Position numbers and translations under genes: made by a program. The notes beneath the pieces were generated by a model. It was given only the letters and a program-made list of their open reading frames with translations. It made no database searches and was not told the origin of the DNA. 5,580 nucleotides of DNA from a virus (taxonomy: Duplodnaviria; Heunggongvirae; Uroviricota; Caudoviricetes), in the IMG/VR virus record IMGVR_UViG_2657245461_000008. One strand, 5' to 3'. Positions 1 through 697 of this stretch are shown piece by piece; positions within the stretch are counted from its first letter, which is position 1; every line of letters begins with the position of its first letter.

Positions 1-43
1 ACGCAAGCACCTTAAAATCACCATCATACACTAAATCAGTAAG

Positions 44-697
44 TTGGCAGCATTACCTGACCCGTTATCTAAAACAGAATTCAATGCATTAATGGAAAGT
101 GAAAAAGGACAGAGCCAAAACTTGTGGAAATTTGCCGTTTACTCCGGGCTTCGTCACGGGGAACTGGCAGCTCTGGCGTGGGAGGATGTGGATTTCGAGA
201 AGGGAATTGTGAATGTCAGAAGAAACCTGACGATACTTGATATGTTCGGTCCCCCAAAAACAAATGCCGGGATCCGGACGGTAGCATTACTGCAGCCGGC
301 TCTTGAAGCACTGAAGGAGCAATACAAACTGACCGGGCATCATCGCAAAAGCGAAATCACTTTTTATCATCGGGAGTACGGCAGAACTGAAAAACAAAAA
401 CTGCATTTTGTTTTCATGCCCAGGGTGTGTAACGAAAAACAGAAACCTTATTACTCGGTAAGCAGTTTGGGTACAAGATGGAATGCAGCAGTAAAACGTG
501 CTGGTATTCGCCGCCGTAATCCGTACCATACGCGACATACTTTTGCCTGCTGGCTGTTGACGGCAGGAGCGAACCCGGCATTTATAGCCAGCCAGATGGG
601 GCATGAAACTGCGCAAATGGTGTATGAAATTTACGGTATGTGGATTGATGACATGAACGACGAACAGATAGCCATGTTGAATGCGCGGTTATCGTAG
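44..697 (+). CDS. Phage-type tyrosine recombinase/integrase, C-terminal catalytic domain only (N-terminally truncated remnant, probably nonfunctional)
   Basis: 217-codon ORF starting at TTG 44 with no convincing SD. Translation has the tyrosine-recombinase catalytic motifs: Arg in YSGLRHGEL, His-x-x-Arg in NPYHTRHTFACW, then GHETAQMVYEIY with the presumed nucleophile Tyr. Stops in all three forward frames within nt 1-43 (TAA 13-15, TAA 32-34 in the int frame, TAA 39-41), so the N-terminal arm/core-binding domains cannot be contiguous upstream. Confidence 0.75.
   Translation: MAALPDPLSKTEFNALMESEKGQSQNLWKFAVYSGLRHGELAALAWEDVDFEKGIVNVRRNLTILDMFGPPKTNAGIRTVALLQPALEALKEQYKLTGHHRKSEITFYHREYGRTEKQKLHFVFMPRVCNEKQKPYYSVSSLGTRWNAAVKRAGIRRRNPYHTRHTFACWLLTAGANPAFIASQMGHETAQMVYEIYGMWIDDMNDEQIAMLNARLS

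Follow-up and report, generated by a model that had tools for sequence, protein, structure and literature searches.

This report concerns a stretch of viral DNA of 5,580 nt (hereafter the window, meaning the whole stretch analysed), in which an ORF with the features of a tyrosine recombinase precedes an att site and the sitABCD genes. The sequence was compared with annotated bacterial chromosomes and phage genomes, and the following features were placed on it:

1-57, minus strand: left (insA-proximal) end of IS1, with the tip at 57 and the 23-bp terminal inverted repeat at 35-57
44-697, plus strand: chimeric ORF of 217 aa with a TTG start (from the ORF list, Pfam and junction mapping)
58-697, plus strand: 3' remnant of intR (catalytic domain), intR nt 597-1236 of 1236
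143-163, plus strand: tyrosine-recombinase motif RHGEL (SGLRHGE)
251-277, plus strand: tyrosine-recombinase motif PKT..G.R (PPKTNAGIR)
527-544, plus strand: tyrosine-recombinase motif HTRHTF
596-634, plus strand: tyrosine-recombinase motif GH......Y..Y (MGHETAQMVYEIY)
698-755, plus strand: P arm (integrase side) of a Rac-type att, equal to the intR-ttcA intergenic region (locus L001) and unrelated to the uspF-sit junction (locus L014)
756-798, plus strand: att core, 43 bp, common to both prophage ends of E. coli CFSAN029787
799-937, plus strand: P' arm (cargo/tail side), matching the uspF-sit junction (L014) and not the ttcA side (L001)
1129-4578, plus strand: sitABCD, prophage cargo (moron), from the ORFs, E. 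coli sitA-D annotation and Pfam ZnuA, ABC_tran and ABC-3
4779-5402, minus strand: DUF4376 protein, 207 aa, overlapping the 3' end of the phage_tail_N tail-fibre gene
5353-5520, minus strand: 3' end of the phage_tail_N tail-fibre gene, the prophage tail-fibre end that comes directly after sitD

A preliminary description, made from the letters alone, had taken the ORF at 44-697 for a decapitated integrase with a complete tyrosine-recombinase catalytic half. As far as the catalytic half is concerned, this was right: the sole Pfam match in the ORF is PF00589 (Phage_integrase, E 3.8e-24, profile positions 6-165 of 172), all of the conserved Arg, Lys, His-x-x-Arg, His and Tyr motifs were located, and the remnant region can be aligned with structure 6emy (Tn1549 Int) as far as and including the C-terminal Tyr region. 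What had been missed is the cause of the truncation, an IS1 end that is visible within window 1-57.

Window 6-57 is identical to the end of an annotated IS1A at 49 of 52 positions, and the match stops exactly at the IS tip (...GGCAGCATTACC). The remaining part of the element lies upstream of the window; in the S. flexneri locus L010 (CP001383.1) the whole element is 768 bp long, its ends read GGTAATGACTCCAACTTACTGAT and GGTAATGCTGCCAACTTACTGAT, and over its entire length it shares 99.9% identity with elements annotated as 'IS1 family transposase'. A second IS1 copy, located 9 kb downstream in the same S. flexneri locus, is 100% identical to window 1-57. The minus-strand gene of the L010 element matches Pfam Zn_ribbon_InsA, HTH_Tnp_IS1 and DDE_Tnp_IS1, so that length (about 768 bp), terminal inverted repeats (about 23 bp, GGTRATG...) and InsA/IS1 DDE matches all identify it as IS1. 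A minus-strand promoter-like site at window 50 to 23 (L010 10007 to 9980), the only such site in the IS1 end, is directed into IS1/insA.

The DNA that follows the IS1 tip is 99.6% identical to intR of E. coli CFSAN029787, from intR nt 595 (codon 199) onward; bases 56-57 (CC) are common to the IS1 tip and intR, and the breakpoint is therefore ambiguous by 2 nt. Intact intR, flanked by xisR and ttcA, has 1236 nt (411 aa). In CFSAN029787 it belongs to a prophage of about 48 kb with the layout nifJ-ompN-uspF, att, sitABCD, DUF4376, tail fibre/baseplate and further genes, xisR, intR, att, ttcA, where recE', gam, an AAA ATPase and DUF1187 precede xisR and intR (411 aa), and this counterpart is 99.6-99.8% identical to the window. 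From such a layout it follows that IntR is the cognate integrase type of a sit-carrying, ttcA-targeting prophage of the Rac family. An identical SitA occurs at the uspF-att-sit position in CP000036.1 (S. boydii Sb227) and in several E. coli. Because near-identical annotated DNA exists, the identity of the remnant as intR is settled; apart from the 99.6% identity, the downstream sequence is identical as far as window 798, and xisR' with intR nt 1-172 is found beyond IS1.

In at least eight S. flexneri chromosomes the order is xisR' and intR nt 1-172, then IS1 (768 bp), then intR nt 597-1236. Between the surviving pieces intR nt 173-596 (codons 58-198) is absent, a loss of 424 nt which is out of frame (424 mod 3 = 1). 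The 5' fragment reads 57 IntR codons and one further codon before a stop within IS1. In full-length IntR, Arm-DNA-bind_2 covers residues 5-69, a SAM-like core-binding domain residues ~82-187 (a call that falls short of the Pfam cut-off but is located where this domain is normally found) and Phage_integrase residues 205-391; the lesion thus takes the last part of the arm-binding domain and all of the core-binding domain, and of the three domains of a lambda-type integrase the window ORF has PF00589 only. Window 1-5520 is 100% identical to two S. flexneri chromosomes. A search of 5,426 complete E. coli genomes gave neither the left nor the right IS1 junction, nor any intermediate state.

The upstream extension proposed in the preliminary description, in search of the point where homology breaks and of an IS element or deletion scar, did therefore lead to both, with IS1 at the break and 424 nt deleted. 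The claim that the N-terminal half is absent holds for codons 58-198, but codons 1-57 survive beyond the 768-bp IS1, outside the window. Likewise, the integrase is indeed truncated, its homologues being 411 aa, but it is split by IS1 and internally deleted rather than cleanly decapitated.

The 9-mers that flank IS1 are GTTCCGGTG (intR nt 164-172) and TGACCCGTT (intR nt 597-605), 424 nt apart in intR. As they differ, there is no target-site duplication of the kind that simple insertion leaves (usually 9 bp), which points to insertion with deletion or to recombination between two IS1 copies. The order of events would accordingly be either insertion followed by deletion or two insertions followed by recombination.

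Differently broken copies of intR were also encountered. In E. coli MLI023K1 and similar genomes IS1A leaves an 843-nt intR remnant beside ttcA (locus L003, 2300-3896), with another breakpoint. E. coli H22 and six other genomes carry a 231-nt intR remnant upstream of sit (locus L015, 6002-6232), which is an independent truncation.

All three forward frames had been described as closed by stops within nt 1-43. This does not apply to frame 3, which stays open until 90, while frame 1 is closed at 13 and again at 40, and frame 2 at 32. The open stretch 1-89 of frame 3 would suit a recent pseudogene or a sequencing error, with the N-terminus lying directly upstream and separated by a single frameshift or stop. 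However, in every S. flexneri chromosome examined the upstream DNA is IS1, the junction is identical across independent assemblies, and beyond IS1 only intR nt 1-172 remains, the next 424 nt being gone. A full N-terminus joined by a single frameshift, named in the preliminary description as an outcome that would speak against it, was not found, and IS1 with a deletion stands in its place. This possibility is refuted by the upstream IS1 and the missing 424 nt, and its probability is practically nil.

The ORF at 44-697 consists of four codons, TTG GCA GCA TTA, that belong to the IS1 inverted repeat, followed in frame by IntR residues 199-411. The TTG 'start' is IS1 DNA, because window 1-57 is the IS1 end, and the 217-aa ORF exists because this TTG happens to be in frame with the intR remnant. 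Gene callers nevertheless predict the ORF in dozens of assemblies, and its PF00589 domain is complete with every catalytic motif, so that a naturally short family of stand-alone catalytic-domain recombinases might be considered. Such a family is at odds with the IS1 origin of the first four codons and with homologues that are 99.6% identical and 411 aa long, with arm- and core-binding domains; the preliminary description had itself allowed for homologues of naturally about 217 aa, and the nearest turned out to have 411. The exact 217-aa protein is present in UniRef as 'Lambdoid prophage Rac integrase' of S. flexneri 2a 301, but the 90%-identity cluster that holds it is composed of fragments of 45-237 aa, many of them tagged 'partial'. 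Mapping of the IS1/intR junction refutes the short family, and hardly any probability can be given to it.

The absence of a Shine-Dalgarno sequence (SD) before the TTG at 44, pointed out earlier, was confirmed: no purine-rich sequence precedes it (TCATACACTAAATCAGTAAG). A consensus scan, which could miss IS1 read-through or a hybrid promoter, gave no plus-strand promoter-like site in the 300 bp 5' of the ORF. As promoter and ribosome-binding site are both wanting, the 217-aa product is most likely not made, and we would expect the ORF to be silent. An Rfam search of the window at the gathering threshold produced no matches. In the intR remnant the S. flexneri-specific changes are two non-synonymous and one synonymous, against a ratio of 2:18 for two intact intR genes (Fisher p = 0.067, non-significant, with n = 3 changes in the remnant); the pattern leans slightly towards relaxed constraint, on too few changes to conclude.

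One could also imagine that the fusion of IS1 to 'intR is expressed, either by read-through or from a hybrid promoter located at the end of IS1, and has been retained because it does something useful: it might, for instance, nick or bind att cores of Rac type, or act as a poison on the integrase of Rac-type phages entering the cell. The 217-codon frame is intact with all catalytic motifs, the ORF does not vary (100% conservation) in the S. flexneri chromosomes examined, and an intact attP-type site follows immediately downstream. Recent clonal descent alone predicts this conservation, however, and the few lineage-specific changes lean non-synonymous; there is also neither an SD nor a plus-strand promoter-like site, and a fragment of this kind, as known from lambda Int, is devoid of core and arm binding. 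A retained function is therefore very improbable. If the fusion were expressed at a low level with retained activity, it would be a domesticated fragment and not debris.

In our judgement the ORF at 44-697 arose as a chance in-frame fusion and is in all likelihood no gene. With a probability of roughly 0.93, the 217-aa ORF would be the back half of a Rac-type intR that was split by IS1 together with an internal 424-nt deletion, i.e. debris. The proposed course is as follows. IntR is the tyrosine integrase of a lambdoid prophage of the Rac family. This prophage inserts at the 5' end of ttcA, and its cargo, sitABCD, lies between att and the tail-fibre genes. In the S. flexneri lineage IS1 lies within intR, and the 424 nt (nt 173-596) on one side of it are gone, lost through either IS1-mediated adjacent deletion or IS1 x IS1 recombination. 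This lesion parts the 57 arm-binding codons from the catalytic domain, drops the core-binding domain and shifts the frame. The C-terminal catalytic fragment of lambda Int performs topoisomerase-type cleavage and religation and does not recombine att sites, as it is without core and arm binding; by analogy, the catalytic domain alone, even if made, could probably not carry out att recombination. With the excisionase gene truncated by another IS, the recombination module would be dead.

The second of these lesions lies upstream of the remnant in S. flexneri, where xisR is without its first 43 nt, including the start codon (L010 7593-8900 and 8901-9073), and rcbA/DUF1187 is missing; an IS3-family element of about 1.3 kb takes the place of rcbA and the xisR start. 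A 55-aa DUF1233 ORF is still called at the truncated xisR in L010. Besides xisR, the Rac early-left genes kilR, ydaE, racC and recE are found upstream of the remnant, and the S. flexneri flanks (±10 kb) are phage and IS DNA throughout. These neighbours support the earlier view of a decayed mobile element, which can now be specified as a Rac-family lambdoid prophage with sitABCD cargo and many IS elements in S. flexneri; most phage genes of this element are gone. Since int is split and has lost 424 nt and xisR is truncated, the sit genes would not be movable by their own int/xis module. It is thus a reasonable inference that self-mobility by this module has been lost, unless another prophage were to help in trans. 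Tandem lysogeny was also examined through the two pRha-type genes that bound the S. flexneri locus, which did not prove to be copies of one another.

The remnant is followed by an att site whose structure bears on the meaning of 'its own integrase'. Compared with CFSAN029787, window 698-755 is present on the int side only, 756-798 on both sides (43/43 at the intR-ttcA junction and 40/43 at the uspF-sit junction) and the DNA from 799 onward on the sit side only. By these comparisons the att beside the remnant is an unrecombined junction of the attP type, P-O-P', and int-att-sit is therefore the phage-internal order and not an island edge. Homology of the P' arm to E. coli Jnd12 extends to window 919, and homology to the sit cassettes of unrelated lambda-like phages begins at window 938. 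The tandem motif TTTGCCCCCAA / TTTGCCCCATTT at 706-728 in the P arm, together with the TTTGCCCCATTT copy at 903-914 in the P' arm, may represent candidate arm-type binding sites of IntR. The core is enclosed in a mimic of the ttcA 5' end at 749-802, with an ATG at 749, 17 codons (MQENQQITKKEQYNLNK) and a stop at 800-802, its translation being the TtcA N-terminus; this phage-borne copy of the ttcA 5' end would restore ttcA upon integration.

A single prophage integrated by IntR could not keep attP, so that the arrangement in S. flexneri came about by another route, which must be one of the following: tandem lysogens, a circular copy re-inserted by IS-mediated or homologous recombination, or rearrangement between prophages. 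E. coli H22 and six further genomes have the same int'-att-sit order, with the int breakpoint at window 466; because it is shared at a different int breakpoint, this order predates the IS1 lesion and has undergone independent decay.

Jnd12, in which a full-length intR abuts the same P' arm, was considered as a tandem of Rac prophages and rejected, since its Rac-type prophage is fused to one of Qin type ending at rspB. There (L027/L028, NZ_CP095820.1 2615000-2713900) a complete Rac-type prophage ends with xisR-intR and abuts the Qin-type prophage via the P' arm, and the latter ends with a different integrase beside rspB. This indicates that in Jnd12 two prophage sites were apparently joined by rearrangement.

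For S. flexneri it is conceivable, if somewhat short of an even chance, that the remnant is the last gene of a neighbouring prophage unit and not the integrase of this sit copy, with tandem lysogens at ttcA or an inter-prophage rearrangement having left the att as an internal P-O-P'. Thus P arm, core and P' arm lie in one piece, which is impossible for a single IntR-integrated prophage, the H22 group shows int'-att-sit with int truncated elsewhere, and S. boydii with several E. coli has the identical SitA at the ordinary uspF-att-sit end. On the other hand, the order equals that of a single circular phage genome (xis-int-att-sit-tail fibre, as in Lambda_2E9), and one copy re-inserted by IS-mediated or homologous recombination would look alike; moreover, no second sit or int copy lies within ±10 kb, and the sole full-length example examined, Jnd12, is a Rac/Qin junction and not a tandem. 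An origin from two units is compatible with the interpretation of the ORF as IS1-split intR and differs from it only in the meaning of 'its own integrase'. The attP-type junction is in any case a small clue that the S. flexneri copy was not arranged by simple IntR integration.

The rest of the window has the order of a sit moron or PAI sit, int'-att-sitABCD-DUF4376/tail fibre. Upstream of sitA (start 1129) a candidate Fur box-like site was noticed at 1034-1052 (GTTAATGATAATTATTTTC, 16/19 to the consensus, matched by 0/200 shuffles), as well as a palindrome with 9-bp arms at 1075-1096 (AAACATAGC-CGTT-GCTATGTTT). The latter, likewise a candidate regulatory site, resembles an MntR box and is the only 'terminator-like' flag of the scan. 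A 'metal ABC transporter permease' pseudogene near uspF in H22 was considered as a second sit copy and rejected, as it has no DNA similarity to the sitD of the window. Window 5521-5580 shows 100% identity with the tnpA region found in IS66-like elements of EIEC plasmids. In other S. flexneri chromosomes the tail-fibre (phage_tail_N) gene continues past 5520, and therefore the source strain has extra IS66-family sequence that interrupts this gene.

For annotation, the consequence is that the ORF should be labelled an IS1-disrupted intR pseudogene rather than a 'site-specific integrase' or 'putative transposase'. A literature search pairing the Rac prophage with sitABCD found nothing. The results provide a concrete origin for the sit island of S. 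flexneri, namely a Rac-family, ttcA-targeting prophage whose int/xis module was destroyed by IS elements. Beyond annotation the significance is small, as both the sit island and lambdoid phages with sit genes have been described before and IS-driven decay is ordinary in Shigella.

With regard to known systems, the remnant resembles IntR of the E. coli Rac prophage in its 96-99.6% DNA identity to annotated intR nt 595-1236 and in the 3' intergenic region and ttcA 5' mimic that follow it. It differs in keeping only the contiguous residues 199-411, with 58-198 deleted and IS1 between the surviving pieces, and in having P-O-P' as its downstream site instead of a prophage/ttcA junction. Insertion with deletion can result from IS1 either by adjacent deletion or by recombination of two copies. 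Adjacent deletions promoted by IS1, reportedly described by Reif and Saedler in 1975, are classical behaviour of this element, and the present case is similar to them in the complete IS1, the one flank in place, the neighbouring 424 nt gone and the lack of a 9-bp duplication, although recombination of two IS1 insertions gives an identical end state.

Among lambda phages of the infant gut sitABCD is the commonest virulence-associated moron, with a Fur box upstream (PMC6969025). The sit cassette of such lambda-like coliphages is 98% identical over window 938-4598 and likewise has an upstream Fur box, and Lambda_2E9 (LR595860.1) shares the order xis-int-att region-sitABCD-tail fibre. Phages of the Lambda_2E9 type are, in contrast, viable, with a full-length integrase of 380 aa ('Prophage lambda integrase') and additional genes separating int from sit, and the integrase of the window, being of Rac type and broken, is unlike that of the sitABCD coliphages of PMC6969025. 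The PAI sit of S. flexneri (Fisher et al. 2009), as related in the review PMC7545054, comprises sitABCD with many IS elements, rearrangements and deletions. In the same review it is placed at several chromosomal sites, its rearrangements and movement being ascribed to homologous and not site-specific recombination. Such movement fits the probably dead int/xis module described above, which is in keeping with the published view that homologous or IS-mediated events are now the island's only means of moving.
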